Below, in pieces: positions 6,141 to 63,081 of a stretch of 64,000 bases of DNA; within the stretch, counting starts at the first letter, position 1; every line of letters begins with the position of its first letter. Source of the DNA: Gemmatimonadaceae bacterium (lineage in GTDB: Bacteria; Gemmatimonadota; Gemmatimonadetes; Gemmatimonadales; Gemmatimonadaceae); the NCBI GenBank assembly GCA_036378095.1, contig DASUXC010000084.1, positions 19,805 through 83,804 of the forward strand, given 5' to 3'. A program made the position numbers and the translations under genes. Under the pieces are notes generated by a model, which had not been told where the DNA came from, ran no database searches, and worked only from the letters and a program-made list of their open reading frames with translations.

Positions 6141-6270
6141 TGGTGCGGGGGAGGGATGGGGCGCGGGGGGCGGGGCGCGGGACGCGGATTCGGCGAATCG
6201 CGGGCCCGAGGCCCTGACCCCCGACCCCTCGTCCGGCCACTGGCCCCCGGCCCACAACCCCCCGACCCCT
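6141..6270. repeat. Composite intergenic element E1: G-run array, central palindrome, C-run array
   Basis: Top strand has six G3-6 runs at 6147..6181, then the palindrome GATTCG-g-CGAATC (6187..6199), then C3-6 runs (gacccccgacccctcgtccggccactggcccccggcccacaaccccccgacccct) up to the stop of the MFS gene. Confidence 0.6.
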
Positions 6271-6272
6271 AG

Positions 6273-7919
6273 CTAGTGCGCATCGACGGGCGCCCGAGCT
6301 CCCCGGTGCCTGCGCAGGAGGAGGATCGCCGGGGAGACGATCAGGAACGTGAGGAGGAGGAGGATCCAAGCGTCGTTGTAGCTCAGCATGGCCGCCTGCC
6401 GCATCACGAGCTGGTCGAGAATCTTGAGCGCGCCCTGATGGGCGGCCTCCGGGGAGTAGCCGCGCTGCATCAGGCCGGCGGCGAACGCCTGCGCGCGCTG
6501 GGCCACGAGCGGATTGCCGGCGTACACGTTGGACACCAGGTCCACCCGGTGCAGCTGCGTGTGCGTGGTCACGTACGAGGCGAGCCAGGCGATGCCGAAC
6601 GAGCCGCCGAGCTGGCGCGCGAGGTTGATCAGGCCGGACGCCTGCTGCGCCTCGCTCGGCTGCAGGCTCGCGTACGCCACCTGGTTGATCGGCGTGAAGA
6701 GCATGCCGAGTCCGGCGCCGCGGAAGATGAGGGCGATGCGCACGTCCTCCTCCCCGGCGGCCACCGTGAGATGCCCGAGCTTCCACATGGCCCAGACCAC
6801 CAGGAGCACGCCGATGGCGATCAGCGCGCGCGGATCGGCCAACGGCTTGGCGCCGTTGAGCAGCGCGCCGCAGATGACCGCGGTGACGGCGGTGGCGATC
6901 CCGCCGGGGAGAAGCGCGAGCCCCGTCTCGGTCGGGGTGAAGCGCAGGATTCCCTGCGTGAACAGCGGGAAGATGAACGTCCCCCCGTACAGCGCGAAGC
7001 CGAGCGCCACGAAGAGGAAGATCGACGCGGAGAGCTCGCGATTCTTGAGTACGCGGAAGTTCACCACCGGATGCCGGTTGCGGGGCGAGATCTCCCACCA
7101 GAGCATGGTCAGCAGCGCCACGCCGGCGATCACGGCGAGCCTCACGATCCACTCGTTGGAGAACCAGTCCTTCGAGTTCCCCTCCTCGAGCACGTACTGG
7201 AGGGAGCCGAGGCCCACGGTGAGGAGCCCGATCCCGAGCCAGTCGATCTGCCCGGAGTGGCGCCGCTGCCCCGGCGGGTCCTTCAGGAAAGTGGTCACCA
7301 GGAACGCCGACACGATGCCGATCGGCACGTTGATGAAGAAGCACCAGTGCCACTGGTAGTTGTCGGTGATCCACCCGCCGAGCGTGGGGCCGAGCGTCGG
7401 GGCCACGATGATCCCGAGGAGGAAGATCGCCTGCACGATCCCTTGCTGCTCCAGCGGGAAGATCTGTCGGATGGTGGCCTGCGCGGTGGAGAGGAGCGCG
7501 GCGCCTCCCGCGCCCTGGACGATGCGCCAGAACACGAGCTCCACCAGGCTGTTCGACGTCCCGCAGAAGAACGAGGCGGCGATGAACAGGATGATGGAGA
7601 AGGTGAGGTAGCGCTGCCGCCCGAAGCGCTCGGTGAAGAACGCCGTCATCGGGAGGAAGATGACGTTGGACAGGATGTACCCGGTGGCCACCCAGCCGAT
7701 CTCCTCCTGGGTGGCGCCCAGGTTCCCCGCCATCTGCGGGAGGGCGACGTTGATGATGGTGGTGTCGAGCACCTCCATGATCGCCGCGGTGATGAGGCCG
7801 ACGAGGATCACCCAGCGGTAGCGGGCGACGAAGGCCGCGGCGGCTTCGGCCGCGTCGTGCGTACCTCCACGGGCGCCCGGGCCGCCGGACGCGCGGGAGT
7901 CGATAGCGTGTGTGGTCAA
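6273..7919 (-). CDS. emrB: MFS transporter, DHA2 (EmrB/QacA) drug-efflux family
   Basis: 548-aa ORF, polytopic. N-terminal block VLDTTIINVALPQMAGNLGATQEEIGWVATGYILSNVIFLPMTAFFTERFGRQ is the characteristic DHA2 motif. Confidence 0.88.
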   Translation of the reverse strand: MTTHAIDSRASGGPGARGGTHDAAEAAAAFVARYRWVILVGLITAAIMEVLDTTIINVALPQMAGNLGATQEEIGWVATGYILSNVIFLPMTAFFTERFGRQRYLTFSIILFIAASFFCGTSNSLVELVFWRIVQGAGGAALLSTAQATIRQIFPLEQQGIVQAIFLLGIIVAPTLGPTLGGWITDNYQWHWCFFINVPIGIVSAFLVTTFLKDPPGQRRHSGQIDWLGIGLLTVGLGSLQYVLEEGNSKDWFSNEWIVRLAVIAGVALLTMLWWEISPRNRHPVVNFRVLKNRELSASIFLFVALGFALYGGTFIFPLFTQGILRFTPTETGLALLPGGIATAVTAVICGALLNGAKPLADPRALIAIGVLLVVWAMWKLGHLTVAAGEEDVRIALIFRGAGLGMLFTPINQVAYASLQPSEAQQASGLINLARQLGGSFGIAWLASYVTTHTQLHRVDLVSNVYAGNPLVAQRAQAFAAGLMQRGYSPEAAHQGALKILDQLVMRQAAMLSYNDAWILLLLTFLIVSPAILLLRRHRGARAPVDAH

Positions 7920-7939
7920 CGACGGTTGGTGAGCGGGAG

Positions 7940-8617
7940 TTAACGCGATGCCGCCTCATCGCGGACGAGCGACACGACCATCCGGGCGGCGGTCTCGAGC
8001 GGGATGGTCGCGGTGTTGATCTGCATGTCGTACAAGTTCGGGTCGTTCGTGTCCTGCCGGTAGTAACGCTCGAGATAGTGTTTTCGGTCCCAATCCCGGC
8101 GGCGGACGTCGTCGGCGGCCTGCCTCGCCGAGACCCCCGTCCGGCTGGCCACCCGATGCACCCGCACGTGAAACGGGGCGGTGACCCGCACCCGGAGGAG
8201 GTCGCGGCGGTCGCGAAGCAGGCACGTGGCGCCATGGCCGATGATGACGAGTGGCGGGGTGCGCGCGGCCTCGAGCACCACCGCGCGCGTGGCATGCACC
8301 ATCGCGTCGGGGTCGGGGGTGCCCGGGGCGTCCGGGAGCACGGGCGCATCGGAGGGCACGACGGTGAACGCGGCGGCGATGCGCTCGAGCAGCGTGGGCG
8401 CGTGCTCGTCCACCAGCTCCACGTCCTCGCACCGGCAGCGCAGCCGCGCCGCGATGCGGCGGGCGAGCTCGCGGTCGAGCACGGGCCATCCCAACTGCTC
8501 GCCGAGCAGCACTCCCAGCTCGCTCCCCCCCGCGCCGTATTCGCGGGAGAGCGCGATCACGCGCACGGGCTCGCGACGCGTGACGTCCGGGGTCGCCTGC
8601 GCGGCCGGTGCGGTCAT
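7940..8617 (-). CDS. Cytidylate kinase-like family protein
   Basis: Inner ATG (MTAPAAQ...) of ORF 7940..8839. IALSREYGAGGSELGVLLGEQLGWPVLDRELARRIA and the C-terminal DRKHYLERYYRQDTNDPNLYDMQINT match the cytidylate-kinase-like (PF13189-type) pattern. Confidence 0.75.
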   Translation of the reverse strand: MTAPAAQATPDVTRREPVRVIALSREYGAGGSELGVLLGEQLGWPVLDRELARRIAARLRCRCEDVELVDEHAPTLLERIAAAFTVVPSDAPVLPDAPGTPDPDAMVHATRAVVLEAARTPPLVIIGHGATCLLRDRRDLLRVRVTAPFHVRVHRVASRTGVSARQAADDVRRRDWDRKHYLERYYRQDTNDPNLYDMQINTATIPLETAARMVVSLVRDEAASR

Positions 8618-8813
8618 CTCGCCTGTCTCGTCGTGCTCTGGCCCGGGACCGTCCCTTCCAGCATCACTGTCCCCTCGGTGGCCCGCCGAATCTAGCTCGC
8701 CCCGACGGCCCTGTCCACGCGCGGGGGCGAGCGGAACCGCTGCTCGATCATCGATGGTCAGATTCCATGCCATGACGCGGGGCTCGCGACCGCGATCGTC
8801 CGGTGGCCGCGCC

Positions 8814-8878
8814 GGGAACGGTCCACGGGAACGGTCCACGGGAACGGTTCACGGGAACGGTCCACGGGAACGGTTCAT
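8814..8878. repeat. Tandem repeat, 5 x 13 bp (GGGAACGGTCCAC; variants GGTTCAC and GGTTCAT)
   Basis: Read directly: gggaacggtccac gggaacggtccac gggaacggttcac gggaacggtccac gggaacggttcat, inside the 415-bp divergent intergenic region 8618..9031. Confidence 0.9.
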
Positions 8879-9031: not shown

Positions 9032-9922
9032 ATGGCCAGCAGACCGACGACGACAGCCACGCCCGCGGCACAGGCGGGCTCGATCACCATTGGCGGGGAC
9101 CTCGTGGTCGAGCGCATGGGCTACGGCGCCATGCGGCTCACGGGGAAGGGGATCATCGGCGAGCCCGCCGACCGCGCCGAGGCGAAGCGCGTGCTTCGCC
9201 GCGCCGTGGAGCTCGGAGTGAACTTCATCGACACGGCGGACTCGTACGGGCCGCACGTCTCGGAGGAGCTGATCGCCGAGGCGCTTCACCCGTATCCGGA
9301 GGGGCTCGTGATCGCCACCAAGGGCGGCCTCGAGCGGCCGGGGCCGGACCAGTGGCTGCCGAACGGCCGGCCGGAGCACCTGCGCGCCGCGCTCGATGGG
9401 AGCCTCCGCCGGTTGAAGCTCGACCGCATCGATCTCTGGCAGCTCCACCGCATCGATCCCGAGGTTCCGGCCGACGAGCAGTTCGACGTGCTCGCGGAGT
9501 TCGTTCGGGAGGGGAAGGTGCGGCACGTCGGCCTCTCCGAGGTGAGCGTGGAGCAGATCCGGCGCGCGCGCGAGGTGGTGCCGATCGCCTCGGTGCAGAA
9601 CCGCTACAACGTGTTCGACCGGCAGTGGGACGACGTCGTGGACGAGTGCGAGCGCGAGGGGATGGCGTTCATCCCGTGGTATCCGCTCGCCGCGGGGGTG
9701 CTCGGACAGTCGGAGCGCGAGGCGAGCGAGCGGCTGGCCAGAGTGGCGCGGCGCCACGGCGCGACGCCCCTCCAGGTGGCGCTCGCCTGGCTCCTTGCGC
9801 GGTCGCCGGCGATGCTCGTCATTCCCGGCACCTCCAAGGTGAAGCACCTGGAGGAAAACGTGGCGGCGGCGGGGGTGGAGCTGAGCGCGGACGACTTGCG
9901 GGAGCTCGGGAATCGGGAATAG
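9032..9922 (+). CDS. Aldo/keto reductase
   Basis: ATG 9032 is preceded by AAGGAG with a 9-nt spacer (alternative ATG at 9014). [47 protein letters not shown]. The last 7 codons and the stop lie in repeat element E2. Confidence 0.9.
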
Positions 9923-10082
9923 GGAATCTCGGGAATCGGGAAGCGGGAATCGGGAAGCGGGAATCGGCAAGCGAAGAGCACCGATGTGGATGGCAACGGG
10001 GCCGGCGACCGCCGGCCCCGTTGCGTTCCATGCTCGATCGCTTCCCGATTCCCGAGATTCCCTATTCCCGATTCCCGAGCTC
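9902..10082. repeat. Composite element E2 (GGGAATC family): perfect 44-bp inverted repeat around a 12-bp GC hairpin
   Basis: 9902..9945 (gagctcgggaatcgggaatagggaatctcgggaatcgggaagcg) is the exact reverse complement of 10039..10082. The left array continues with further GGGAA(T/G)C units to about 9972. Central hairpin AACGGGGCCGGC-gacc-GCCGGCCCCGTT at 9995..10022. Confidence 0.92.
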
Positions 10083-12359
10083 CTTCGCCATCTCGCTCAC
10101 GTGCGCCGCTTCGGCGTCGAGCACGGCGGCGATGCGGGCGATCTCGGTGTTCGCGGCCGTCCATTCCCCCTGCTCGATCGCCTCGCGCGCGCCGGGCATG
10201 GTCTTCACGCCGTAGCCCGTGTAGTAGCCCGGCGCGTAGAGCAGGTGGCGATACCACGGGCGGTTGGGGAGGCCACGATCCGACGTGAGCAGCCGCTCGC
10301 TGGCGAGGAGCTGCTCGTTGATCGACGCCAGCGACGCGCGGCGCTCACTGGAGCCCGCCGCCCGCGACGTGGTGTCGCTCTCCCCCGACCACGCGGCGTA
10401 CGCGCGCTCGAACCGGTCGGCGGCGTGCGCGAGCGAGTCGGCGGCGTTGTGCAGCGCGGCGAACTCGAGCCGCGGCGCCGGCGTCTCCCGCTCCGGCGCG
10501 CGCGTCGGGTCGCGGGGATCGCTCACCAGCGCGTACATGCCATCGTCGATGTCGCGGTTGCGCTGCTCGATCTCGCTCGCGCGCTTGTCGCGGAGCTGCT
10601 CCAGCTCGGTGACGTAGCGCTGCACGGTGGCCGCGAGGTTCGCGAAGCGGAACGGGAGCAGGTCGGCGTCGGCGAGACGCATGACGGCGGTGCCGACGGT
10701 CTGCGCGAGCGCGCGGCCGTAGACGAACGAGGTGTCGGCGAAGTGCGTGTACCAGTAGAAGTCGTCGTACACCGAGTGGTACACCCCGCCCCGGTCCTCG
10801 CCGCCGAAGCCGAGGTTGAGCGACGCGATGCCGAGGTGCTGCACGAAGGGCGTGTAGTCGGAGCCGGATCCGAGCGCGCCGATGGGAAGGTCGCCGCCAT
10901 CCTTCGGCGGCTCGCGGTGGTCATCGGAGGACCGGTGGACGCGGGCGCGCGCCTGGTCGCGCTTCCACACGGTGGCGCCGCTCTCCGGGTCGTCGATGTC
11001 GCGCGCCACGTCGTTGATGAAGCGCTCGAGCGTGTGCGAGCCCGACATCCCGAGGTATCCGCGGCCGTTCCCGTCCGTGTTCAGGTACGCGACCGCGTGC
11101 CGCGCCAGCTCCTCGGCGTGCGCCTCGGCCCACTCGGTCGAGCCGAGCAGCCCCGGCTCCTCGCCGTCCCACGCCGCGTAGACGATCGTGCGCTTCGGCC
11201 GCCAGCCGCTCTTGTACAGGGCGCCGAGCGCGCGCGCCTCCTCCAGCTCGGCCACGAGGCCCGAGATCGGGTCGGCGGCGCCGTTCACCCAGCCGTCGTG
11301 ATGGTTGCCGCGGACCACCCACTCGTCGGCCTCGCTCGTGCCCGGAAGCCTGGCGATCACGTCGTAGAGCGTCTTCAGGCTCCAGTCGGACTTCACGACG
11401 AGGTGCACGCGCGCGGGACCGCTCCCGCCATAGCGATACGTGATCGGCAGCCCGCCGCGCCAGCTCTCGGCCACCACGGGGCCGCCGAGCGCGGCGAGCA
11501 GCGGCTGCGCATCGCCGTACGAGATCGGGAGCACGGGGATCTTCGTGATCGTCTTCGCCTCGGCCACCGTCAGCCGCTTGGCGTCCTTCGTCGCGCCCAC
11601 GCCCGGCGTGAGCGGATCGCCGGGGTAGACCGGCATGTCCGCGACGCTGCCGCGCTGCACGCCATCGCGCGGGCGCATCGGCCCCGCGGGGAAGACGCTC
11701 CCCTCCGCCCAGCCATCATCGGCGGGGTCGGAGTAGATGAGGCACCCGACCGCGCCGTGCTCGGCGGCGACCTTGGGCTTGATGCCGCGCCACGAGCCGC
11801 CGTAGCGGGCGATGACGATCGCTCCCTTCACCGACACGCCGTGGCGCGCGAGCTCCTCGTAGTCGGCGGGGACGCCGTAGTTCACGTAGACGATCGGCGC
11901 GGTCACGTCGCCGTCGGCGGAGTAGGCGTTGTACGTGGGGAGCTGCTCGTCGTGCTGGCCGCTCGTGGGATCGGCGGCCACGGCCGGCTCGCGCAGCGCC
12001 GCGCGGAACGTCGTCGGGGCGACGAGCTCCACGACCCGCTGCTTCGGGGTGGGGAAGAGCACGTCGAAGCGCTCGATCCGCGCCTGCCAGCCGTACGACT
12101 CGAACTCCTTGCGCAGCCAGGCGGCGTTCGTGCTGTCGTACGGCGAGCCGACGTGGTGCGGACGCGCGGAGAGGGTTCGCATGGCCTCGCGCATGCGCGC
12201 GGGCTCGGGGATGGCGCGGAACTTCGTTTCCCAGCCGCGCTCGACGCGCGAGGACTCCGGCGTGAAGCCGCGCAGGGTCGAAGGATCGGTGCGGGTGGGC
12301 AGGATGGAGAGCCCGGCCAGCGCGAGCGCGAGCGAGAGGGAGTGAGCGGGAGTGTTCAT
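10062..12359 (-). CDS. M28 family metallopeptidase, glutamate carboxypeptidase II / transferrin-receptor-like
   Basis: Inner ATG (MNTPAHSLSLALALAGLSIL, signal peptide) of ORF 10062..12461. PA-domain block IVIARYGGSWRGIKPKVAAEHGAVGCLIYSDP, zinc-site blocks GNHHDGWVNGAADP and WDGEEPGLLGSTEWAE, and a C-terminal dimerisation-like region. Confidence 0.9.
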   Translation of the reverse strand: MNTPAHSLSLALALAGLSILPTRTDPSTLRGFTPESSRVERGWETKFRAIPEPARMREAMRTLSARPHHVGSPYDSTNAAWLRKEFESYGWQARIERFDVLFPTPKQRVVELVAPTTFRAALREPAVAADPTSGQHDEQLPTYNAYSADGDVTAPIVYVNYGVPADYEELARHGVSVKGAIVIARYGGSWRGIKPKVAAEHGAVGCLIYSDPADDGWAEGSVFPAGPMRPRDGVQRGSVADMPVYPGDPLTPGVGATKDAKRLTVAEAKTITKIPVLPISYGDAQPLLAALGGPVVAESWRGGLPITYRYGGSGPARVHLVVKSDWSLKTLYDVIARLPGTSEADEWVVRGNHHDGWVNGAADPISGLVAELEEARALGALYKSGWRPKRTIVYAAWDGEEPGLLGSTEWAEAHAEELARHAVAYLNTDGNGRGYLGMSGSHTLERFINDVARDIDDPESGATVWKRDQARARVHRSSDDHREPPKDGGDLPIGALGSGSDYTPFVQHLGIASLNLGFGGEDRGGVYHSVYDDFYWYTHFADTSFVYGRALAQTVGTAVMRLADADLLPFRFANLAATVQRYVTELEQLRDKRASEIEQRNRDIDDGMYALVSDPRDPTRAPERETPAPRLEFAALHNAADSLAHAADRFERAYAAWSGESDTTSRAAGSSERRASLASINEQLLASERLLTSDRGLPNRPWYRHLLYAPGYYTGYGVKTMPGAREAIEQGEWTAANTEIARIAAVLDAEAAHVSEMAKELGNRE

Positions 12360-12513
12360 GGGCGAACGCGTGGTTGAGTGGTGTCGCCAATCAACCGCTG
12401 GGGGCGGGGGCTCGCAACCGCGCGGCGGAGGCGTCGGGCGGGAGACTCGACCGGGGGGCACCCCGGGGGCGGCCCCGGAGCCACCTCGGGGCCACCCCCG
12501 GGTCGCCCCGGGG

Positions 12514-13013: not shown

Positions 13014-13025
13014 GAGGTCGGGACG

Positions 13026-13724: not shown

Positions 13725-13726
13725 GG

Positions 13727-13891
13727 CGTCGGGCGTGGTGTGAGCGAGTGGGGGGTGGGGTATGGCGCACCAAGCGGATGTGGCGTGAGGCGGCGTGGGG
13801 CGTGGCGAGTGGCCCGCGCTCCATGCGCCGCGCTCCATGCGCCGCGCTCCGTCCTCACGCCACAAGCGCGTCCATTGTCGCGCCCCACATC
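13727..13891. repeat. Composite element E3 (GTGGCGTGAGG family) between convergent genes
   Basis: G-rich left part (gagtggggggtggggtatgg). Inverted pair GTGGCGTGAGG (13780..13790) and CCTCACGCCAC (13853..13863). Internal 14-bp (2 x 7) tandem CGCGCTCCATGCGC x 2.5 at 13815..13850. Confidence 0.65.
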
Positions 13892-14529: not shown

Positions 14530-16641
14530 GTGTCGCGTCTCGCGTTTCGTCCCCGCCTCCGCCTTCGTTCGCGCGCGCGCCGTATCGCGCTCACGGCACT
14601 CGCCGCGCTGCCGGTCGGCGCGATCGCCTCCGCGCGCGCCGCGGCCCAGGACACCGCCGCGGCACCGTACCCGCTCGGCGAGGTCGTGGTCTCGGCGCGG
14701 GCCCCGGTGTCCGAGGCGAGCGGCACGGTGCGCATGGTCACGGCGGCGGACATCCGCGCATCCGGCGCGCGCACGCTCGACGAAGCCATCGCGCTCCTCC
14801 CCGGCGTCCACGTGCGCACCGGCGGCGACGGCGTGCCGCGCGTGGACGTGCGCGGCTTCCGTCCCCGCCACGTGCTCCTCCTGCTCGACGGCGTGCCCCT
14901 CAACTCCACGTACGATGGGCAGTTCGATCCCACCCTCGTGCCGGTCGAGGAGATCGCGTACATCAAGGTGCAGCCCGGCGCGTCGTCCGTTCTGTACGGC
15001 GCGGGGGCGCTCGGCGGCGCGATCGACATCGTGACGCGCACCGGGAGCGGGCCGGCGCACGGCGAGATCGGAGGTGAGGCGCGCGAGCGCGATGGCACCC
15101 TCGCGCGCGCCAGCATCGGCGGGGGGAACGCGCGCATCGGCGGCTTCGCCGCGGCGAGCGGCATGCGCACCGACGGCTACCTCGCGCCACGCCTCTCGCC
15201 GAGCGTCGCCGGCTCGGGGAGCGGGGACGCGCTCCGCGCCAACACCGATCGCAAGCGAGTGAACGCGTTCGGCAACGCGAAGGCGCGCATCGGCGAACGG
15301 CTCACGCTCGGTCTGGTGCTCTCCGGCGTGCACGGCGCGTACGGGATCCCGACCACGGTGATCGGCGACGCGAGCGATCCGTTCGCCACGCGAGCGACGT
15401 ACGAGCGCGTTCCCTCCCTCGACCAGCGCTCGGCGCAGCTCGCCGCATCGTGGGCGCCGCGCGGCGCGATCTCGGTGCGATCGTGGGCGTACGTCAATCA
15501 GTACGACGAGGACCACGACCGGTTCGACGACAGCAGCTTCGCATCGATGTCCGATTCCACCGTGCGCGGCACCTTTCACCAGTCGAGCCGCTCGCGCGTG
15601 AGCGGCGTGGGGGCGCAGGTCGCCCTGGAGGCGGCCCGGTGGGGGCGCCTCACGGTGGGCGCGAGCGCGGAGCGGGATTCGTGGCGGTCCGACCTGCACG
15701 TGCGGGACGTGCCGGTGGGGAGTGGCGGTGGCGGCGGTGGCGGCGGTGGCGGCGGTGGCGGTGGCGGAGGCGGAGGCGGCGCGACGTGGTACCGCTTCCG
15801 CGACGTGTCCGACGCGCGGCACCTCGATCACGCGGGACTCGCCGTCGAGTACGAGGTCCGGCCGGTGGCGCCGGTGGGCGTGGTCGTCGGCGTCGCGCAC
15901 GACTGGCTGGCGAAGGACTCGGCCGGGCACGACGATGCGGGGGCGTACACCGCCGGCGCCTACGTCGACGTGGCACGGGGGACGCGCGTGCGCGCCTCGG
16001 CGGGGCGGAAGGTCCGCTTCCCGGCGATCCGGCAGCTCTACGATCCCACCGCGGGGAACCCGGCGCTGCACGCCGAGCGCGCCGACGAGTACGAGGCGGG
16101 GGTGGAGCAGTCGCTCCCCGCGCGGTCGCTGCTGTCGGTGACGGCGTTCGTGACGAACGTGCGCGGCTACATCGAGCGCCCGTCGCCATCGGAGCCGTTC
16201 GCCAATGCCACGGCCTACCGCTTCTCGGGCGTGGAGGTGCTGGCCGAGACGCGGGCGATCGAGCGCGTGCTCCTGCGCGCGGGGTGGTCGTTCCTCGACA
16301 CCCAGGATCGCTCGCCCGGCGCCTCGCGCGACGCGTTGCAGTACGAGCCGCGGCATCGCATCACGCTCGAGGGGCGATGGGCACTTCCGATCGGGCTCGA
16401 CGTGGCGGGCTCGGTGATGCGCGTGACGGGGCAGGTCTTCTACTCGCGCGCGGCGCCCGTTCGGCAGGCGTCGCTCCCCGACTACACGCTGCTCGGCGTG
16501 CGGCTCGGGCAGCGCGTGCTGCGCGGCGCGGTCGACGTGTACGCCGGCGCCGACAACCTGCTCGACGAGGCGTACGAGGACGAGTACGGCTACCCGCGTC
16601 CCGGGCGCACGCTGTACGCCGGCGCTACCTTACGGTGGTGA
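14530..16641 (+). CDS. TonB-dependent outer-membrane receptor
   Basis: GTG start with GGAG 5 nt upstream. Signal peptide, plug block VRMVTAADIRASGARTLDEAIALLPGVHV...VDVRGF...LLLDGVPLN, and C-terminal barrel ending TLYAGATLRW. Contains an unusual 19-Gly tract. Confidence 0.9.
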   Translation: MSRLAFRPRLRLRSRARRIALTALAALPVGAIASARAAAQDTAAAPYPLGEVVVSARAPVSEASGTVRMVTAADIRASGARTLDEAIALLPGVHVRTGGDGVPRVDVRGFRPRHVLLLLDGVPLNSTYDGQFDPTLVPVEEIAYIKVQPGASSVLYGAGALGGAIDIVTRTGSGPAHGEIGGEARERDGTLARASIGGGNARIGGFAAASGMRTDGYLAPRLSPSVAGSGSGDALRANTDRKRVNAFGNAKARIGERLTLGLVLSGVHGAYGIPTTVIGDASDPFATRATYERVPSLDQRSAQLAASWAPRGAISVRSWAYVNQYDEDHDRFDDSSFASMSDSTVRGTFHQSSRSRVSGVGAQVALEAARWGRLTVGASAERDSWRSDLHVRDVPVGSGGGGGGGGGGGGGGGGGGGATWYRFRDVSDARHLDHAGLAVEYEVRPVAPVGVVVGVAHDWLAKDSAGHDDAGAYTAGAYVDVARGTRVRASAGRKVRFPAIRQLYDPTAGNPALHAERADEYEAGVEQSLPARSLLSVTAFVTNVRGYIERPSPSEPFANATAYRFSGVEVLAETRAIERVLLRAGWSFLDTQDRSPGASRDALQYEPRHRITLEGRWALPIGLDVAGSVMRVTGQVFYSRAAPVRQASLPDYTLLGVRLGQRVLRGAVDVYAGADNLLDEAYEDEYGYPRPGRTLYAGATLRW
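15721..15780 (+). repeat. Triplet simple-sequence repeat (GGY/GGA)n encoding Ser + 19 Gly inside the TonB receptor
   Basis: agtggcggtggcggcggtggcggcggtggcggcggtggcggtggcggaggcggaggcggc. Protein reads VGSGGGGGGGGGGGGGGGGGGGATWY. Confidence 0.9.
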
Positions 16642-20415: not shown

Positions 20416-21300
20416 ATGAGAAGCGCACCTCTCGTCTCCGGGCGCATGGTCGCGCTCGTCTTCGCCGGCGCCGTTGCCGCGGCCTGTGGCAGCGACTCCT
20501 CGACACAACCCAAGACCGTCGCCAGCGTGACCGTGAGTCCCGCGAAGGACACCGTCCAGACGGGCGAGACGGCGCAGTTCACTGCCGAGCTCAAGGACGC
20601 CAACGGCAACGTGCTCACGGGGCAGTCGGTGACGTGGACCTCGAGCGACACGGATGCGGCCCCCATCTCCGCGTCCGGCGCGGTGGCGGCGATCCTCCCC
20701 GGGACGTCGACGATCACCGCCACCGCCGGGGGCGTCTCGAACACCGCCGATCTCACCATCCTCGCCGGTGCCGCGCACCAGCTCTCCGAGGGCGAGCGGA
20801 TCGGCGACTCCACCTTCGCCCCCGGCGACGGCCCCAACGGCGGGCAGGGCGACCCGGTGGGCAGCGTGCCGTGCGCCGCCGATGCGGGGCAGCCGGTGGA
20901 ACACCGGCACTCGCACCTCACGCTCATCGCCAACGGGCAGCAGATCGCGATCCCGCTCGCCATCGGCGTGATGAACCCCATCTACAACGACACCAACGAG
21001 GCGTTCGCCGGCACGTGCTTCTACTGGCTGCACACGCACGACCAGACGGGGATCATCCACGTGGAGCCGTTCGAGGGGGGACACACGTTCACGCTCGGTG
21101 ACTTCTTCGACATCTGGGGGCAGCCGCTGACGGCGAGCGGTGTAGCGGGGTACAGCGGGAGCGTGGCGGCGTACGTGGACGGGAAGCGCTTCACCGGCGA
21201 TCCGCGCTCGATCGTGCTCGCCGATCACCAGCAGATCACGCTCGAGGTGGGAGCTCCCCTCGTGGCGCCGCCGATCTACACCTGGCCCAATGGCTATTAA
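20416..21300 (+). CDS. Lipoprotein with Big_2 (bacterial Ig-like) domain and a His-rich C-terminal domain of unknown function
   Basis: Inner ATG of ORF 20251..21300. Lipobox LVFAGAVAAAC-GS. Big_2 block VASVTVSPAKDTVQTGETAQFTAELKDANGNVLTGQSVTWTSSD. C-terminal EHRHSHLTLIANGQQIAIP...CFYWLHTHDQTGIIHVE...FTLGDFFDIWGQPL. The 3' end overlaps the kaiC start by 11 nt. Confidence 0.75.
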   Translation: MRSAPLVSGRMVALVFAGAVAAACGSDSSTQPKTVASVTVSPAKDTVQTGETAQFTAELKDANGNVLTGQSVTWTSSDTDAAPISASGAVAAILPGTSTITATAGGVSNTADLTILAGAAHQLSEGERIGDSTFAPGDGPNGGQGDPVGSVPCAADAGQPVEHRHSHLTLIANGQQIAIPLAIGVMNPIYNDTNEAFAGTCFYWLHTHDQTGIIHVEPFEGGHTFTLGDFFDIWGQPLTASGVAGYSGSVAAYVDGKRFTGDPRSIVLADHQQITLEVGAPLVAPPIYTWPNGY

Positions 21301-22738
21301 GGCACCAACCGGCATCCGCGGTCTCGACGAGATCACCGGCGGTGGGCTGCCGGCCGGGCGCCCCACGCTGGTGTGCGGCGGTCCGGGCTGCGGGAAGACG
21401 CTCCTGGCGATGGAGTTTCTCGTGCGCGGCGCCACGGATGCCGGCGAGCCCGGAGTGTTCGTCGCGTTCGAGGAGACGGTGGCCGACCTCGCGGCGGACG
21501 TCGCGTCGCTCGGCTTCGACCTCGACCAGCTCATTGCCCAGGGGAAGCTGCGCGTCGACCACGTGCGCGTGCTGCGCTCCGAGATCGACGAGGCCGGAGA
21601 CTACGACCTGGAGGGGCTGTTCGTCCGCCTCGGCCACGCGATCGACAGCATCGGCGCGAAGCGCGTGGTGCTCGACACGATCGAGACGCTCTTCTCCGCC
21701 TTCTCCAACGAGGCCATCCTGCGCGCCGAGCTGCGCCGGCTGTTCGGATGGCTCAAGGAGCGCGGCGTGACCGCGGTGATCACCGCCGAGCGCGGAGAGG
21801 GCACGCTCACCCGGCAAGGGCTGGAGGAGTACGTCTCCGACTGCGTGATCCTGCTCGACCACCGCGTGAACGGGCAGGTGAGCACCCGGCGCCTTCGCGT
21901 GGTGAAGTACCGCGGCTCCTCGCACGGCACGAACGAGTTCCCGTTCATCATCGAGGACGGCGGGCTGACGGTGCTCCCGATCACCTCGGTCGGCCTCTCG
22001 TACGGTGTGAGCGAGGAGCGCATCTCGACGGGGGTGGCCGGGCTGGATGACATGCTCGGCGGCCTCGGCTTCTACCGGGGGAGCAGCATCCTCGTCTCCG
22101 GCAGCGCCGGCACGGGAAAGTCGCTGCTGGCGGCGCACTTCGTGGACGCCGCCTGCCGGCGCGGCGAGGGCGCGCTGTACTGCGCGTTCGAGGAATCGCC
22201 GGCGCAGATCATGCGCAACGCCCGCGCGACGGGGGTGAGGCTGGCGGAGCACGTGGAGCGCGGCCTGCTTCGATTCCACGCGGTGCGCCCCACCATGTAC
22301 GGGCTCGAGGCGCATCTGGCCCGGATCGTGAAGGACATCGACATGTTCCGGCCGCGCGTCGTGGTGCTCGATCCCCTCACGGCGTTCCTCGGCGCCGCCA
22401 TGCAGCCCGATGTGCTCGCGATGGCGACCCGTCTCATCGACTCGCTCAAGCTCGTCGGGATCACGGCGATGATGACGAGTCTCAACGGCCGTGACGAGAC
22501 GGTCCTGGGGGAGAGCGACGTCGGCGTCTCATCGCTGGTGGACTCGTGGATCTGCCTCCGCGATGTCGAGCGGCACGGTGAGCGCCACCGCGGCCTCTAC
22601 GTTCTCAAGTCCAGGGGCATGGCGCACTCCAACCGGATTCGCGAGTTTCTCATCTCGAGCCAGGGGATCCGACTGGGCGAACCCAACCCGGGTGACGAGC
22701 GGGAAGGGTGGCAAGTGGAGTTCATCGAACGGCAATGA
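21290..22738 (+). CDS. kaiC: Circadian clock protein KaiC homolog (double RecA-like ATPase)
   Basis: 482-aa [24 protein letters not shown]. Walker A GGPGCGKT (CI) and GSAGTGKS (CII). Catalytic EE pairs VAFEE and CAFEE. C-terminal [44 protein letters not shown]. Confidence 0.92.
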
Positions 22739-22793
22739 CACCGCCGCCGCTCACGCCGTGCGCGGCGCGGCCACCCTTTTTCGAGTGCGCTTC

Positions 22794-23123
22794 ATGAGCA
22801 CATCCAAGGCGCCCGGCGCGGCGCCCACCCTGTCGGAACCCGCGGTCGAGCAGTGGGATCTGCGGCTCTACGTGGCCGGGCAGTCTCCGCGCTCGCTCGC
22901 CGCGTTCGCGAACCTCAAGCGGCTGTGCGACGAGCACATTCCCGGTCGCTATCACATCGAGGTGATCGATCTCGTCGCCCACCCGCAGCTCGCGGTCAGT
23001 GACGAGATCGTCGCCCTTCCGACGCTGGTCCGGCGGCTGCCGCCGCCGATCAGGAAGCTCATTGGCGACCTGTCGAACGGCGAGCGCACGCTCGTCGGCC
23101 TCAACATTCGCCCTCGCGCGTGA
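22794..23123 (+). CDS. kaiB: KaiB homolog (copy 1)
   Basis: Inner ATG of ORF 22491..23123. [74 protein letters not shown] is the canonical KaiB pattern. Confidence 0.9.
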
Positions 23124-23151
23124 CCAGCGCGCCACCACGGCGGACGATCTC

Positions 23152-23493
23152 ATGCCCGAGCAGCCTGTCAGCGTCACCGAGGAGTTCGAGCGCGCACTCC
23201 GGGGCGTGCAGCCGAACGCGCGGTACGTGCTCCGGCTGTACGTCGCCGGCTCGAGCGCGCGGTCGCTCCGCGCCGTGGAGAACGTGCAGCGGCTGTGCGA
23301 GGCGTACCTGCCGGGGCGCTACGACCTCGAGGTCATCGACATCTACCAGCTCCCCTGGCTCGCCGAGGCGGGGGAGGTGGTGGCCGCGCCGACGCTGGTG
23401 AAGGAGCTCCCGCTTCCCCTCCGCCGCGTGGTCGGCGACCTCGCCGACGAGGGGCGCGTGCTGATCGCGCTCGGCCTCAGGGTGGCGGCATGA
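23152..23493 (+). CDS. kaiB: KaiB homolog (copy 2)
   Basis: Inner ATG of ORF 22999..23493. YVLRLYVAGSSARSLRAVENVQRLCEAYLPGRYDLEVIDIYQLPWLAEAGEVVAAPTLVKELPLPLRRVVGDLA. The stop overlaps the next ATG (ATGA). Confidence 0.9.
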   Translation: MPEQPVSVTEEFERALRGVQPNARYVLRLYVAGSSARSLRAVENVQRLCEAYLPGRYDLEVIDIYQLPWLAEAGEVVAAPTLVKELPLPLRRVVGDLADEGRVLIALGLRVAA

Positions 23494-30348: not shown

Positions 30349-30350
30349 TG

Positions 30351-41313: not shown

Positions 41314-41386
41314 GGGGAATCCTGTGAGGAGGTGGCACAAGATTCACCGGATGTTTAGCGGAGTCAACGGTTGGGGGGGAGGTTGC

Positions 41387-41547: not shown

Positions 41548-41566
41548 CTTCGCTACCGCCGCTCTC

Positions 41567-48876: not shown

Positions 48877-48880
48877 GGAA

Positions 48881-48997
48881 GTGGGGAATCGGGAAGCGGG
48901 AATCGGGAATCGGAAGTATGGGCGGGAACGCGGCGCCGGTCGACCACGCCCCACCGGATCCCCTCGGCTCCCGATTCCCGATTCCCGATGCTTTCCC
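48881..48997. repeat. Composite element E7 (GGGAATC family) in a divergent intergenic region
   Basis: Left heptads gggaatc gggaagc gggaatc gggaatc at 48884..48911, starting 8 nt from the ATG of the minus-strand gene. Right arm ggctcccgattcccgattcccgatgctttccc at 48966..48997. Confidence 0.82.
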
Positions 48998-49185: not shown

Positions 49186-50166
49186 ATGAACACGCTCACT
49201 CTCGAGACGATGGCGCCGAGCCGCCGCGCCCGCCCGTCGGGCTCGTGGCGTTCGACCGGCGATCCCGAGCGCGACCTGCTCGAGCGGGAGATGGCGGGGC
49301 ACTACCAGGTGGTGCGCCTGCTCGGGCGCGGGGGGATGGGGGCGGTGTATCTCGCGCGGGACGTCGTGCTGCACCGGCACGTGGCGATCAAGGTGCTGCG
49401 GCGCGATCTCCTGGGGCGCGACGAGTCGCGCGAGCGCTTCCGCCGGGAGGCGCGGCTCTCCGCGCAGCTCAGCCATCCGGGGATCGTTCCGATCCACGAG
49501 TTCGGCGAGTCGCCGCGCCTCATGTACATGGTCATGCGCTACGTCTACGGCGAGTCGCTCGGCGAGCGGCTCCGGCGGGAGGGGCGCATCGCGGCCCCGG
49601 ACACGAGGGAGATTCTCGCCGGTCTCGCCGCCGCGCTCGAGTACGCGCACGCGCAGGGAGTGGTGCACCGCGATCTCAAGCCGGAGAACGTGCTCCTCGA
49701 TCGCGAAACGGGGCGCGTGGTGCTCGCCGACTTCGGGGTGGCGACGCGGCGCACGTGGGACCCCGTCCGCTCGGAGCTGCGAAAGGCGTTCGGGACACCG
49801 CACTTCATGTCCCCCGAGCAGGCCATGGGAGAGGTGGATCTCGACGGGCGCAGCGACCTGTACGGCCTCGGCGTGCTCGGCTTCCTCATGCTCTCGGGCC
49901 GACTCCCCTTCCGTGGGGAGACGTTCGCCGAGATCACCGCGCAGCACGTCTCGCGCGAACCGCCCCAGCTCTCGCCGCTCGCCCCGGACGCACCGCGCGC
50001 GCTGATCGAGGTGATCGGCCGCTGCCTCGAGAAGGACGCGGCGAAGCGGTGGCGGAGTGCGGGGGAGTTGCGCGAGGCGTTGGACGGAGTGGGGCGGAGA
50101 AGGTGGTGGGGAGTGGTGGTTGGAGCGTGGAACGGCAGAGGCGGGTGTGGCGTGAGGAACGCGTAG
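49186..50166 (+). CDS. Ser/Thr protein kinase (kinase domain only)
   Basis: 326-aa ORF. GRGGMGAVY, VAIKVL, HRDLKPENVLL, ADFG, GTPHFMSPEQ. The last ~20 codons and the stop are encoded by repeat element E8. Confidence 0.85.
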   Translation: MNTLTLETMAPSRRARPSGSWRSTGDPERDLLEREMAGHYQVVRLLGRGGMGAVYLARDVVLHRHVAIKVLRRDLLGRDESRERFRREARLSAQLSHPGIVPIHEFGESPRLMYMVMRYVYGESLGERLRREGRIAAPDTREILAGLAAALEYAHAQGVVHRDLKPENVLLDRETGRVVLADFGVATRRTWDPVRSELRKAFGTPHFMSPEQAMGEVDLDGRSDLYGLGVLGFLMLSGRLPFRGETFAEITAQHVSREPPQLSPLAPDAPRALIEVIGRCLEKDAAKRWRSAGELREALDGVGRRRWWGVVVGAWNGRGGCGVRNA

Positions 50167-50245
50167 GCGGTTGTGCGTGGGTGTGCGACCCCACGCTCCA
50201 TGCCCTACGCCTTCCTCACGCCACACCCGCCGTTCGCCGTTCCAC
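50127..50245. repeat. Composite element E8 (GTGGCGTGAGG family) between convergent genes
   Basis: Left arm gtggaacggcagaggcgggtgtggcgtgaggaacgcgtagg (50127..50167). Right arm 50204..50245, whose reverse complement is gtggaacggcgaacggcgggtgtggcgtgaggaaggcgtagg. Inner hairpin GCGTGGG-(8 nt)-CCCACGC. Confidence 0.8.
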
Positions 50246-50262
50246 TCCCCATCATCCACCCG

Positions 50263-51264: not shown

Positions 51265-51400
51265 GCTCGGGATGTACGGGTCGGGTGCAATCTATAACAA
51301 CGGCGCCGTGCCGCGGCGCGGGATCTCCGTGCATGACGCGCGCGCGCGTGGGTCGTCAGCAGAGAGACGGGGCGGTCGGCGCTCGCCCCTCGGGAAGACG

Positions 51401-51500
51401 CGGCTGTCGGCTCTCGGCTCTCGGCCATCGGTGACTGCCCCGCGTAGCGAGCTCCCGGCGTGTGCCGTAGCCGAGAGCCGAGGCCCGAGAGCCGACAGCC
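51401..51500. repeat. Composite element E9 (CGGCTCT/CGGCCAT family, core in - orientation)
   Basis: Heptads ctgtcgg ctctcgg ctctcgg ccatcgg at 51404..51431. Core at 51447..51466 (reverse complement GGCACACGCCGGGAGCTCGC, 18/20 identical to E6). Complementary heptads ccgagag ccgaggc ccgagag ccgacag at 51471..51498. Confidence 0.88.
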
Positions 51501-51612
51501 GGGTCTTCGCCCCGTCGCTCGTGGTGAGTTTTCCGTCCCCCGTCATCCGAAGTCCGATTGCCGGTACGCGATCGGACGAGCAACTTCGCTGGCCCACGCG
51601 GGTACCTGTAGG

Positions 51613-53865: not shown

Positions 53866-53965
53866 TCTTCCCGGGCGCCGGGGCGTAGATTCGGCGATCC
53901 CGCGCCCGGCGTGCCGCGCCCCGCGCCGCGCGCCCCTCGCGCCATCCCGCACCCACGCGCCCCGA

Positions 53966-61970: not shown

Positions 61971-62659
61971 CACGACTCCGAGCGAAGGGTGGCACACACG
62001 GCGCGCACGGGGCAGCGTCCGCAGTGGCGGACGCGGGCCGTGCACACGAGCGCGCCGAGCTCCATCAGCGCCTGATTGTGCGTGTATGCCGCGCGCCCCG
62101 TGCGCGGGAGGGTCGACTCGGCGATCGCCCAGAGCGCCTTGCGCCCCGCCGTGGTCTTGGGGTCGAGCGACGGCGCGAACACGCGGCGAAGGACGCGCGC
62201 CACGTTGGTGTCGACCAGCGGTGCCCGTCGCTCGAAGGCGAAGGAGGCCACCGCGCCGGCGGTGTACGCGCCGATCCCCGGCAGTCGCCGCAGCTCGGCG
62301 GGATCGGCGGGGAGCGTGGCCGGCGAGCCGCCGTCGGTCACCACGCGGGCGAGGCGGTGCAGGTTCCGCGCGCGCGCGTAATAGCCGAGCCCACTCCACG
62401 CCTCCAGCACCCGGCGTGGCGGCGCGCTGGCCACCGACTCGAGGGTGGGGAAGCGGGCGAGGAACTCCGGGTACCTGAGCACCACGCGCGACACCTGCGT
62501 CTGCTGGAGCATGAGCTCGGAGACGAGCACGTGGTACGGATCGCGCGTGCGGCGCCACGGGAGGTCGCGATGGTGCGCGCGATACCACGCGCGGAGCCGC
62601 CGGCCGAAGCGCTCGCGCGTGGCCGCGGTGATCCGGGGGAGCTTCGCCTTCGCGGTCAT
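61970..62659 (-). CDS. mutY: A/G-specific adenine glycosylase-like HhH-GPD/FeS DNA glycosylase (catalytic domain only)
   Basis: Inner ATG (MTAKAKLPRI...) of ORF 61970..63004. WYRAHHRDLPWRRTRDPYHVLVSELMLQQTQV, LPGIGAYTAGAV, cluster C-x7-C-x2-C-x5-C. No NUDIX-like C-terminal domain. The stop overlaps the mprF ATG. Confidence 0.8.
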   Translation of the reverse strand: MTAKAKLPRITAATRERFGRRLRAWYRAHHRDLPWRRTRDPYHVLVSELMLQQTQVSRVVLRYPEFLARFPTLESVASAPPRRVLEAWSGLGYYARARNLHRLARVVTDGGSPATLPADPAELRRLPGIGAYTAGAVASFAFERRAPLVDTNVARVLRRVFAPSLDPKTTAGRKALWAIAESTLPRTGRAAYTHNQALMELGALVCTARVRHCGRCPVRAVCATLRSES

Positions 62660-62690
62660 GGGTCGGTGGGTCGCGGGGGCCGGTTCCTGG

Positions 62691-62880
62691 CGGTCGGTTC
62701 TCGGCTCTCTGCTCTCGGCTCTCGGCTCTCGGCTCTCGGCTCTCGGCTCTCGGCTCTCGGCCATCGGCTCTCGGCTAAAGTCCCGCACGGAGAGCTCTCG
62801 GGGTGTGCCGCAAGCCGAGAGCCGAGAGCCGATGGCCGATGACCGATGGCCGATGGCCGATGACCGATGGCCGAGAGCCG
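62691..62880. repeat. Composite element E10 (CGGCTCT/CGGCCAT family, core in - orientation), the largest array in the window
   Basis: 12 heptads at 62691..62774 (ctctcgg x8 with variants). Core at 62790..62809 (reverse complement GGCACACCCCGAGAGCTCTC, 19/20 identical to E6). 9-10 complementary heptads (ccgagag, ccgatgg, ccgatga) at 62815..62880. Confidence 0.92.
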
Positions 62881-63033
62881 CTCTCCAAGGGCGGAAGCTA
62901 ATCGGCCGCGATCGCCGGGCAATCGGCGAGCGCGGCGGGGGTGTTACCCGGGCGTGGGCACGTGCATCCTTGAATGTGCTTCGAATGTGCTTCCCGTCGT
63001 CCACGTGAGACCAGATGCCCTCGGCCCCCGCAC

Positions 63034-63081
63034 GGGCCGAGAGCCGAGCCGAGAGCCGAGGACCGCCCGTTCCGGGCGGTC
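63034..63081. repeat. Solo half-array of the same heptad family plus a hairpin
   Basis: gggccgagagccgagccgagagccgagg, followed by GACCGCCC-gttcc-GGGCGGTC (63061..63081), just upstream of the RBS and ATG at 63104. Confidence 0.5.

Follow-up and report, generated by a model that had tools for sequence, protein, structure and literature searches.

The subject of this study is a set of ten intergenic elements, designated E1 to E10, in a 64-kb window (the whole stretch of DNA analysed) of a Gemmatimonadaceae metagenome-assembled genome (MAG); the window has a G+C content of 72% and represents the part of the genome covered by our analysis. The initial annotation treated the ten as copies of one architecture, in which a tandem array with a strict 7-nt period is followed by a central hairpin or core and then by the complementary array in inverted orientation. 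The arrays are present where that annotation placed them: Tandem Repeats Finder detects period-7 arrays at these loci, and the window contains 17 arrays with a score of at least 36, against a mean of 1.0 (range 0-3) in the 20 first-order Markov simulations that define the chance level. An unbiased search over the whole window for inverted repeats lying within 300 bp returned E10, E2, E9, E6, E8, and E4 as the longest. Folding as RNA, compared with dinucleotide shuffles, gave strongly negative z-scores for the same six and for E5 (E2 -16.1, E8 -9.9, E9 -7.8, E5 -7.7, E6 -6.9, E10 -6.6, and E4 -6.3) and weak ones for E1 (-1.3), E3 (-2.1), and E7 (-2.4). The best self-similarity lag is 7 or 14 in 19 of the 20 arms; the lag-7 signal is weak (0.47-0.57) in E1, E3, and the right arm of E8, and absent in the left arm of E8. 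The elements are real and far beyond chance expectation, and seven of the ten (E2, E4, E5, E6, E7, E9, and E10) are clear inverted heptad-array pairs. The strict 7-nt period does not extend to E1, E3, and E8, which are degenerate or of another type. The period-7 arrays of the window fit the definition of long simple sequence repeats (SSRs), namely tandem arrays with units of 5-11 nt that exceed chance in length and frequency and are mainly non-coding.

Genes were called from third-position G+C, and about 50 proteins were annotated with Pfam. All of the arrays are located in gaps between called genes or overlap the end of an open reading frame (ORF) by at most about 22 nt, and the elements span their gaps from ORF to ORF. 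The gene contexts agree with the earlier description: E2-E5 and E8 lie between convergent genes, E1 and E6 between tandem genes, and E7, E9, and E10 between divergent genes. The share of gaps that they fill had been overestimated, given that about 10 of the roughly 30 gaps of at least 90 bp hold a listed element, a third and not half. Among convergent junctions, all five gaps longer than 60 bp consist of an element, and the remaining six are gaps of 55 bp or less or overlaps.

Pfam scans of the roughly 50 window proteins found no transposase or integrase, in agreement with the initial annotation, and no RAYT domain. The flanks of E2 (…TTGCGG before the element, CTTCGC… after it) and of E4 (…GGGGG before, AGAATC… after) share no direct repeat that could be a target-site duplication; the termini differ between elements, and the outer ends are variable arrays. 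A scan for hairpin-plus-T-run terminators over bases 1-60000 gave counts no higher than those of shuffled sequences and none at the elements in that range, and for E10, which lies outside it, no T run follows the stem on reading the sequence. CRISPR was rejected (the units are of 7 nt and run head to tail without spacers), as were coding-sequence and tRNA-like readings on the basis of anatomy, and the earlier statement that the elements are not canonical terminators, CRISPR, or coding sequence is upheld. No Rfam family matched at the gathering score or E-value thresholds; sub-threshold matches to miRNA-precursor models occurred on both strands and reflect only long generic hairpins. In practical terms, these arrays seem to fragment MAG assemblies, they alter the C-terminal ends of gene products, and they occupy most 3' gaps in a genome without classical terminators; annotation of high-GC soil bacteria, and the understanding of their transcript ends, has to take this into account.

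Unit families, shared cores, and anatomy

The ten elements fall into several groups. E2, E4, and E7, in which Tandem Repeats Finder reports (TCGGGAA)n and its complement, are members of the GGGAATC repeat type already described in the literature, whereas E6, E9, and E10, built from (TCGGCTC/GCCATCG)n and its complement, represent a new unit family (CGGCTCT/CGGCCAT) with the same architecture and a conserved core of its own. E5 and E1 are G-rich variants, and E3 and E8 form a separate palindrome family in which the heptad signal is at most a decayed one. The description of the two arrays as complementary is accurate only in part: the arms of E5 are two different heptads, and E3 and E8 belong to a separate inverted-repeat family.

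Three families of cores, each recurring two or three times in 64 kb, connect these groups. Core B, asymmetric and about 40 nt long (...CTA-N-GCCCCGC-NN-AG-GAGAGCTCTCGG-S-GTGTGCC-NN-AAG), is common to E6 (on the - strand), E9, and E10, with a mean column identity of 87%. Core A (TCGAGYATGGAAYGC-ACGGGGCCGGC-N4-GCCGGCCCCGT) is common to E2 (on the - strand) and E5, whose arm heptads differ, and had no match in 240 fetched loci. Core C, common to E3 and E8, consists of inverted TGTGGCGTGAGG termini together with CGCTCCATGC, and the centres of E4 and E7 are unrelated. GGAGGACGTGCC and GAGAGCTCTC are core motifs. Cores common to several elements imply that they have been copied between sites, and the occurrence of core A with different heptads indicates that the arm heptads are not tied to the cores; the modular layout proposed earlier is thus supported.

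Within the GGGAATC family, E2 (9901-10083) has a left arm at 9901-9975 with its array at 9906-9967 (TCGGGAA, 8.6 units), a central GC hairpin formed by core A at 9993-10024, and a right arm at 10039-10083 with an array of five units at 10042-10078. The outer 45 nt of its arms are 100% complementary, irregular units included, and such mirrored irregular units were seen in E2 only. The TAG stop codons of both convergent genes lie inside the arms, at 9920-9922 (+) and 10062-10064 (-). E4 (25174-25284) has a left arm at 25174-25236 with an array of 7.4 units at 25181-25232, where the histidine-kinase stop TAG (25188-25190) falls within a variant unit; its right arm (25254-25284, array at 25254-25277) extends to the stop codon of the gamma-glutamyltranspeptidase (GGT) gene at 25283-25285, and the inverted repeat reaches 94% over 31 nt. 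E7 (48877-48995), in a divergent gap, has arrays at 48884-48913 and 48969-48989, the left one 8 nt from the ATG (48876) of a - strand gene and the right arm about 195 nt from the start of the + strand gene.

In the CGGCTCT/CGGCCAT family, E6 (41374-41548) comprises a left array (41385-41443), core B (41444-41480) in inverted orientation relative to E9 and E10, and a right array (41481-41544). E9 (51394-51508) carries its arrays at 51401-51431 and 51469-51501 around core B (51432-51468), and its inverted repeat has 82% identity. The largest member, E10 (62686-62897), lies 27 nt from the start of an HhH-GPD gene (62659, - strand) and consists of a left array of 11.9 units (62694-62776), core B (62777-62812), and a right array of 9.7 units with CGGCCAT/CGGTCAT variants (62813-62880); its arms match at about 74%. 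In E2, E4, and E10, the difference between the two arms amounts to whole units and to stretches of variant units.

As for the G-rich variants, E5 (30349-30498) has a left array (GGGGGCC)x5 at 30350-30385, a core-A hairpin at 30413-30448, and a right array (CCCCGCR)x4.4-4.8 at 30465-30498, reported by Tandem Repeats Finder as (GGCCGGG)5 opposite (CGCACCC)4.4; GGGGGCC faces GGGGYGC on the opposite strand. It begins 2 nt past one stop codon (30348) and ends 1 nt short of the other (30499). E1 (6141-6272) is a degenerate palindrome running from G-rich to C-rich between two - strand genes, an MFS gene (stop at 6273) and a beta-helix/PA14 gene (start at 6109); its left array (GGGGCGC, 4.3 units) occupies 6158-6187, its right side is CCCCGAC-like, and its lag-7 values are 0.55 and 0.57. 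The two core-C elements are different in kind. E3 (13725-13891) fills its convergent gap, with the inverted termini TGTGGCGTGAGG at 13779-13790 and 13853-13864, a 14-nt repeat (CCGCGCTCCATGCG, 2.6 units) at 13814-13850, and weak heptad periodicity. E8 (50127-50245) is a palindrome and not a heptad array; its arms (50140-50181 and 50190-50231) are 86% complementary, and the element has the TGTGGCGTGAGG termini and CGCTCCATGC and overlaps the stop of a kinase gene at 50166. Two arrays were missing from the original list: an unpaired C-rich array of six CCCGCGC units at 53899-53940, located 26 nt upstream of a + strand RDD/SpoIIM-domain gene (53966), and a short GCCGAGA array at 63036-63060, in the same gap as E10 and 44 nt upstream of the + strand gene start at 63104.

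Relatives, wider distribution, and strand polarity

The collections searched contain no sister strain of the genome. The M28/transferrin-receptor-like peptidase beside E2 is 79% identical in its next relative, L120 (GCA_035760785.1), which is syntenic with the window over 6.2-30.3 kb. L120 has no heptad arrays, and the four relatives compared (L120 and three at about 73% identity) have none in 87.8 kb, against 17 in the 64 kb of the window; array richness therefore belongs to particular genomes within the family. Orthologues of the genes beside E10, E2, and E9 are present in the more distant relatives L228, L160, and L176 with no arrays there, and in L117 the genes flanking E6 are missing. At the position of E1, L120 carries a different G-rich/C-rich palindrome. 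In two Gemmatimonadaceae MAGs with 83% DNA identity over 2.3 kb, the same GGGAATC pair lies upstream of a dehydrogenase gene with 11.9 units in one and 9.9 in the other, which indicates that loci are kept while unit numbers change.

Both the aldo/keto reductase and the peptidase that converge on E2 end in ELGNRE*, a tail encoded by the E2 arms, in which the TAG sits in the variant unit GGGAATAG, whereas the orthologues in L120 end in ...LRELNGEAAA* (reductase) and ...MAERLSAAR* (peptidase). The perfect 45-nt mirror takes in 22 nt of each gene, which implies that one arm is a copy of the other and that the copying replaced coding sequence. The motif GGAGCTC occurs at both outer edges of the mirror (9901-9907 and 10077-10083), and the corresponding places in L120 read GAGCTG in the reductase orthologue and GGAGC in that of the peptidase; this edge may have provided microhomology for the copying. 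E1, E4, and E5 are next to genes that keep their native C-termini, and these elements start at or directly after the stop codon. In addition, the positions of E2 and E4 coincide with differences in gene order from L120: in L120, the reductase and the peptidase are separated by two additional genes, and the KaiC-KaiB-KaiB-PAS histidine kinase cluster (21455-25190), which ends in E4 before the gamma-glutamyltranspeptidase gene, is absent from the syntenic region, where a 126-aa gene is found instead. None of the six adjacencies conserved between the window and L120 holds a heptad-array element. With two testable junctions, this association between elements and gene-order breakpoints is a lead and not a result.

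The loci of the wider survey were chosen by pattern, and the query families were left out where that mattered. A scan with (GGGAATC)3, taking one genome per species, returned at least 119 loci in several phyla. The matches listed include the Xanthomonadales genera Xanthomonas, Luteimonas, Dokdonella, Rhodanobacter, and Pseudoxanthomonas, and others fall in Gemmatimonadaceae, Acidobacteriota, many cyanobacteria (Moorena, Microcoleus, and Nostoc), and scattered further taxa. Among the matches listed, tandem repeats of period 7 predominate (n=286), with period 14 (n=69) and period 12 (n=50) less frequent, and dozens of other heptads are found; an inverted partner within 300 bp is present for 25 of the 71 arrays in Xanthomonadales, 21 of the 40 in Gemmatimonadaceae, and 7 of the 149 in cyanobacteria. 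The architecture also occurs in complete isolate chromosomes, such as those of Luteimonas, Xanthomonas, and Egbenema. A metagenome scan with (CGGCTCT)3 returned at least 120 contigs, mostly from soil and with a median G+C of 0.68; several of them encode orthologues of window genes (46-77% identity) and are therefore Gemmatimonadaceae-like. These numbers do not support the suggestion that the repeats may be specific to one lineage.

In many of the CGGCTCT contigs, the centre is a long, conserved hairpin that is oriented either way and has GGAGGACGTGCC as its apical motif; this motif is near-palindromic and better conserved than the stems. In an RNAalifold analysis of 11 copies of this centre, a single hairpin was obtained with a covariation term of +1.12, and 2 of the 24 pairs are compensatory. 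Selection on its structure was accordingly rejected, conservation being at the level of sequence, which fits recent copying or a sequence-specific site better than structural selection. Two contigs, L156 (4336-4578) and L164 (2815-3100), have a CGGCTCT element whose centre encloses an unrelated palindrome (GTCATCCCGCAGGAGCG...CGCTCCTGCGGGATGAC) with an inner inverted repeat of its own. In the soil contig L186, two CGGCTCT elements (107-224 and 549-609) flank one small ORF; one centre is 68 nt long and has no left stem half, the other is a minimal 25 nt with no central hairpin, and the pair suggests that the centre can be lost or gained as a block.

One rule of polarity fits all families. Among the 105 inverted heptad pairs in all fetched DNA, the G-rich arm is on the left in 22 of 22 GGGAATC pairs across loci (and in 3 of 3 in the window), CGGCTCT is on the left in about 29-30 of 31 pairs of that family, and pairs of other heptads are divided 43 to 8, most of the eight being CGGCTCT variants. 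The strand with the G-run (GG or GGG) reads 5' to 3' towards the centre on both sides; G-C skew was rejected as a descriptor of this polarity, given that it fails for CGGCTCT, whereas the GG-run strand works for all families. With 356 arrays oriented by their G-run, the DNA at a distance of 30-150 nt is coding-like past the 5' end in 51% of them and past the 3' end in 22% (p ~1e-20), a difference that holds separately for GGGAATC, CGGCTCT, and other heptads and reaches 54% against 9% in high-GC loci. Where an arm of E2, E4, or E7 adjoins an ORF, it overlaps the ORF end or is no more than 8 nt away. The unpaired C-rich array of the window, with its G-rich strand antisense and just upstream of an ORF, fits the published rule as well. 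This polarity extends that rule, in which the 5' end of the G-rich strand neighbours an ORF, to new taxa and new units. With respect to unit number, in sets that were not selected by the query, heptads without GGG or CCC peak at four units (33 of 86, median 3.9), and heptads with G-tracts do so too, which indicates that an arm length of about 28 bp is favoured and not four G-tracts. Folding gave no support to the idea of array growth at the base of a hairpin on which the polymerase stalls: in the 60-nt flanks of 321 arrays, the side facing the centre is no more structured than the other (z -0.26 vs -0.31, p 0.37).

Origin and possible role of the elements

Our literature search found no report on repeats in Gemmatimonadetes, and the closest published system is that of Rehm et al. 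2015 (PMC4692102). These authors reported 186 and 183 GGGAATC-type arrays in two Xanthomonas genomes, of which 89-93% are intergenic, with 2-26 units, four being the commonest number, and with 70-75 convergent inverted pairs per genome that can fold into stem-loops. On the G-rich strand, the 5' end lies mostly within 50 bp of an ORF, whatever the ORF orientation; the arrays form G-quadruplexes (G4) in vitro according to circular dichroism (CD) spectroscopy, most of them are transcribed, and locus and type are conserved between species (Xcc and Xac), the unit number being variable. The repeats were described in Xanthomonas and Nostoc with no assigned function; arrays of this type serve as variable-number tandem repeat (VNTR) markers in Xanthomonas typing schemes, and a Nostoc preprint put forward a regulatory role of heptamer arrays as speculation. 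The initial view that no described family was involved does not hold for the GGGAATC elements, which match this published repeat: three of the ten elements (E2, E4, and E7) have the identical unit as strict members and are likewise intergenic, ORF-adjacent, and paired in convergent inversion, and E1, E5, E6, E9, and E10 do not contain the GGGAATC unit. The differences are that the host phylum is Gemmatimonadota, neither Xanthomonadales nor cyanobacteria, that the window elements share conserved cores, and that their arms overwrite coding ends. What our study adds is the Gemmatimonadaceae host, the CGGCTCT/CGGCCAT family, the three shared core families, the 45-nt mirror of E2 with its ELGNRE* tails, the strand polarity fixed across many heptads, and the existence of array-free relatives.

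Other heptamer repeats resemble the elements to a lesser extent. According to the Mrazek 2007 survey, as summarised in PMC4679880 and PMC4692102, heptamers are the commonest long SSR unit in bacteria, and these SSRs share with the elements the 7-nt period, the non-coding location, the patchy taxonomy, and a proposed origin by slippage; as presented there, they are defined by tandem arrays alone, without inverted pairing, cores, or polarity. The TAACTGA repeats of Beggiatoaceae (PMC4679880) are also 7-nt tandem arrays situated by start codons or gene ends. Among cyanobacterial and Beggiatoaceae arrays, the same heptads recur in unrelated phyla, but the cyanobacterial ones are mostly unpaired (7 of 149 with an inverted partner, among the matches listed). 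The cyanobacterial heptamer arrays are known as STRR-type repeats. In several large bacterial groups, which include Xanthomonas, cyanobacteria, Beggiatoaceae, and, with this study, Gemmatimonadaceae, few unexplained repeats are as abundant as heptamer arrays.

We tentatively favour, at somewhat short of an even chance, the reading that the elements are palindromes of heptamer repeats driven by slippage, in part copied from site to site, and that their transcripts fold into long hairpins in untranslated regions (UTRs). They are the Gemmatimonadaceae counterpart of the convergent GGGAATC ('GGGNATC') pairs of Xanthomonas, with CGGCTCT/CGGCCAT and G5CC/G4YGC added in the window as extra unit families. 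The arms would lengthen and shorten in 7-nt steps through slipped-strand mispairing, and their likeness would come from inverted duplication or template switching, in which one arm is copied to the other side. The cores, and probably whole elements, would be copied to other intergenic sites in genomes with a permissive factor, and the elements would spread up to the flanking ORFs, where they may overwrite the last few codons. A transcript from either direction would fold into a stem-loop with about 30-85 paired bases; at 3' ends and in 5' UTRs, the most plausible role of such stems would be as structures of the transcript end or the UTR, where they could stop RNA polymerase and 3' exonucleases and could offer a double-stranded substrate to RNase III, and the unit number would tune stem length.

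The origin and change of the elements are partly documented by our data, which establish anatomy, periodicity, copying, distribution, and polarity. Slippage is supported by the unit-number differences between arms, by the 11.9 and 9.9 units at orthologous loci, and by the use of such arrays as VNTR markers; arm copying, by the 45 nt of perfect arms in E2 and the shared ELGNRE* tail unlike the L120 ends; dispersal, by the shared cores A-C and the at least 120 soil contigs with CGGCTCT arrays, many with a conserved centre; and a genome-specific factor, by the 17 arrays of the window against none in 87.8 kb of the four relatives. A hairpin function is what we infer from position, the lack of classical terminators, and the Haemophilus influenzae precedent; the strong fold z-scores, the five convergent gaps that consist of elements, and the transcription of the Xanthomonas arrays are consistent with it. 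The precedent is the 5' UTR of hmw1, where (ATCTTTC)n is one arm of a long hairpin that RNase III cuts and where change in repeat number requires transcription, folding, and RNase III (PMC12721329). Among heptamer-array hairpins, it is the sole case we found whose mechanism has been worked out by experiment. The likeness lies in a heptamer array acting as a hairpin arm in a UTR, the pairing being a predicted one in our elements, and in hmw1 the unit number alters stem length and expression (PMC12721329). The differences are that hmw1 is a single phase-variable locus of a pathogen whose other hairpin arm is non-repetitive and G-rich, and that transcription and RNase III cleavage are demonstrated there and hypothetical here.

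Several observations weigh against this explanation. First, the polarity tracks ORF edges and ignores the direction of transcription, which an RNA-only role does not predict, so that any explanation at the level of RNA alone is incomplete. Second, the arms are often imperfect (about 74% in E10, weak in E7) and mirroring is confined to E2, which suggests that pairing is not strongly maintained; the 11 copies of the conserved metagenomic CGGCTCT centre likewise show no covariation. Third, acting as a terminator makes no sense for the three elements in divergent gaps. Fourth, the flanks of E2 and E4 contain no target-site duplications that would explain copying.

That last point is shared by the strongest rival, which we regard as possible but unlikely: the elements would be selfish mobile DNA, non-autonomous units similar to MITEs (miniature inverted-repeat transposable elements) or REPINs, whose copying enzyme, for instance a RAYT/Y1 transposase or some other protein that recognises hairpins, is encoded at another place in the genome, with any hairpin function secondary. 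Conserved asymmetric cores in either orientation, the apical motif GGAGGACGTGCC highly conserved without covariation as a protein site would be, the palindrome nested in the centres of L156 and L164, the overwriting of gene ends, and a genome-specific burst of 17 arrays against none in 88 kb of relatives all favour this reading. However, the window proteins lack transposases, integrases, and RAYTs, no direct-repeat target duplication is present in the sequence flanking E2 and E4, the outer ends are variable arrays with no fixed terminal repeat, the GGGAATC elements E2, E4, and E7 have unrelated centres, and the many heptads per genome speak against a single sequence-specific enzyme. Comparison with the known families leads to the same mixed result. 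Repetitive extragenic palindromes (REPs) and their BIME and REPIN assemblies, thought to stabilise transcripts or terminate transcription, are similarly intergenic, GC-rich, hairpin-forming, multi-copy, often at gene 3' ends, and arranged in inverted pairs, but a REP is a fixed 20-40-nt imperfect palindrome tied to a RAYT, in contrast to variable arrays of many heptads with no RAYT in the window. MITEs resemble the elements as small, non-autonomous, intergenic units with inverted arms and nested insertions (L156 and L164) and differ in the target-site duplication (none at E2 or E4), the fixed terminal inverted repeat, and the parent insertion sequence, none of which was found here. The REP/MITE-like label given earlier thus describes the behaviour of the CGGCTCT family as a dispersed, multi-copy palindromic repeat; actual REP or MITE membership is not supported, in view of the target-site duplication (none at E2 and E4), the RAYT or transposase (none in the window), and arms that are tandem arrays with no fixed terminal repeat.

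A doubtful alternative is that the arrays mark, or result from, a directional process at the level of DNA, either as cruciforms or protein-binding arrays at intergenic edges or as scars of break repair and rearrangement, with repeats laid from both sides to the centre like two telomeres fused head to head. The polarity, nearly invariant and symmetric regardless of gene orientation, is a point in its favour, together with the 5' side of the G-run strand being coding-like twice as often as the 3' side, the preference for arms of about four units (28 bp) even without G-tracts, and the position of E2 and E4 at gene-order differences from L120 while the six conserved adjacencies are free of heptad-array elements. 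The breakpoint argument is based on two junctions without outgroup polarity, though, and dispersed repeats sit at breakpoints trivially, since they promote recombination; the test for a hairpin beside the 3' end of the G-run strand was negative, and we know of no enzyme that adds arbitrary heptads, which also counts against such a process. An idea of comparably low standing in our estimate is that a trans-acting factor, present in some genomes only, lays down and maintains 7-nt repeats from ORF edges inward; with fixed polarity, any unit, and occurrence in several phyla, the paired elements may be its footprint, and transcription and RNase III may be needed for the process, as hmw1 hints, or it could be linked to break repair or rearrangement. 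The near-invariant polarity independent of transcription direction and the all-or-none difference between related genomes provide a lead to the cause.

The published GGGNATC proposal, in which at least four G3 tracts fold into a G4 in DNA or RNA and modulate nearby genes, seems to us quite improbable as a general account of these elements. Runs of three or more G at 7-nt spacing are present in E1, E2, E4, E5, and E7, the left arms of E2 (8 units), E4 (7), and E7 (4) have at least four units and hence the G3 tracts needed, such oligonucleotides form G4 in vitro, and four units are commonest in Xanthomonas. On the other hand, the right arms of E4 and E7 (about 3 units) have too few tracts, and in pairs the complementary arm competes for duplex formation. 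The CGGCTCT/CGGCCAT family of the window, which has no G3 tract and cannot form G4, falls outside the published rationale and nevertheless has the same layout, ORF adjacency, and fixed polarity, and heptads without GGG/CCC also peak at four units; the G4 explanation is insufficient for a G-tract-free family with these properties.

Least credible of all is that the arrays have no function, as neutral slippage products tolerated in non-coding DNA or as MAG assembly artefacts: SSRs with units too long for mismatch repair can drift, arrays are often at contig ends, and the arm symmetry of E10 is loose, but the same architecture in complete isolate chromosomes excludes an assembly artefact, arrays have been kept at orthologous loci despite 17% DNA divergence, as well as between Xcc and Xac, and fixed polarity with ORF adjacency is not expected from neutral slippage.

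Contig ends and other repeats in the window

Contigs in our collection often end inside tandem arrays (for example L031, L052, L085, L097, L098, and L105). L120 itself ends in (GCGCGGCACCCG)x10 at 20820-20940, and its positions 1-60, just downstream of the YceI stop, are G-rich. Arrays seem to break short-read assemblies, and the array numbers obtained from MAGs are therefore probably underestimates.

The window also contains repeats with other periods. A 13-nt unit (CGGGAACGGTCCA / ...GGTTCA) is repeated five times head to tail at 8813-8874, about 160 nt upstream of the aldo/keto reductase gene, whose likely start is the ATG at 9033 preceded by an AAGGAG Shine-Dalgarno sequence; the unit includes the CGGGAA of the heptad, and the array looks like an operator or an iteron-like site. 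In the gap between the M28 peptidase and cupin genes, an 11-nt-period array of GGGGnnnCCCC palindromes (GGGGCCACCCC, 5.4 units, 12454-12513) comes directly after the stop of the cupin gene (12514, - strand), with a fold z of -2.2. A perfect direct repeat of two GAATGTGCTTC copies at 62972-62993, in the less G+C-rich part of the divergent gap of E10, is possibly an operator or promoter element. Finally, the TonB-dependent receptor gene contains a 9-nt repeat (GGCGGTGGC, 6.4 units) at 15709-15781, which presumably encodes a Gly-rich linker.

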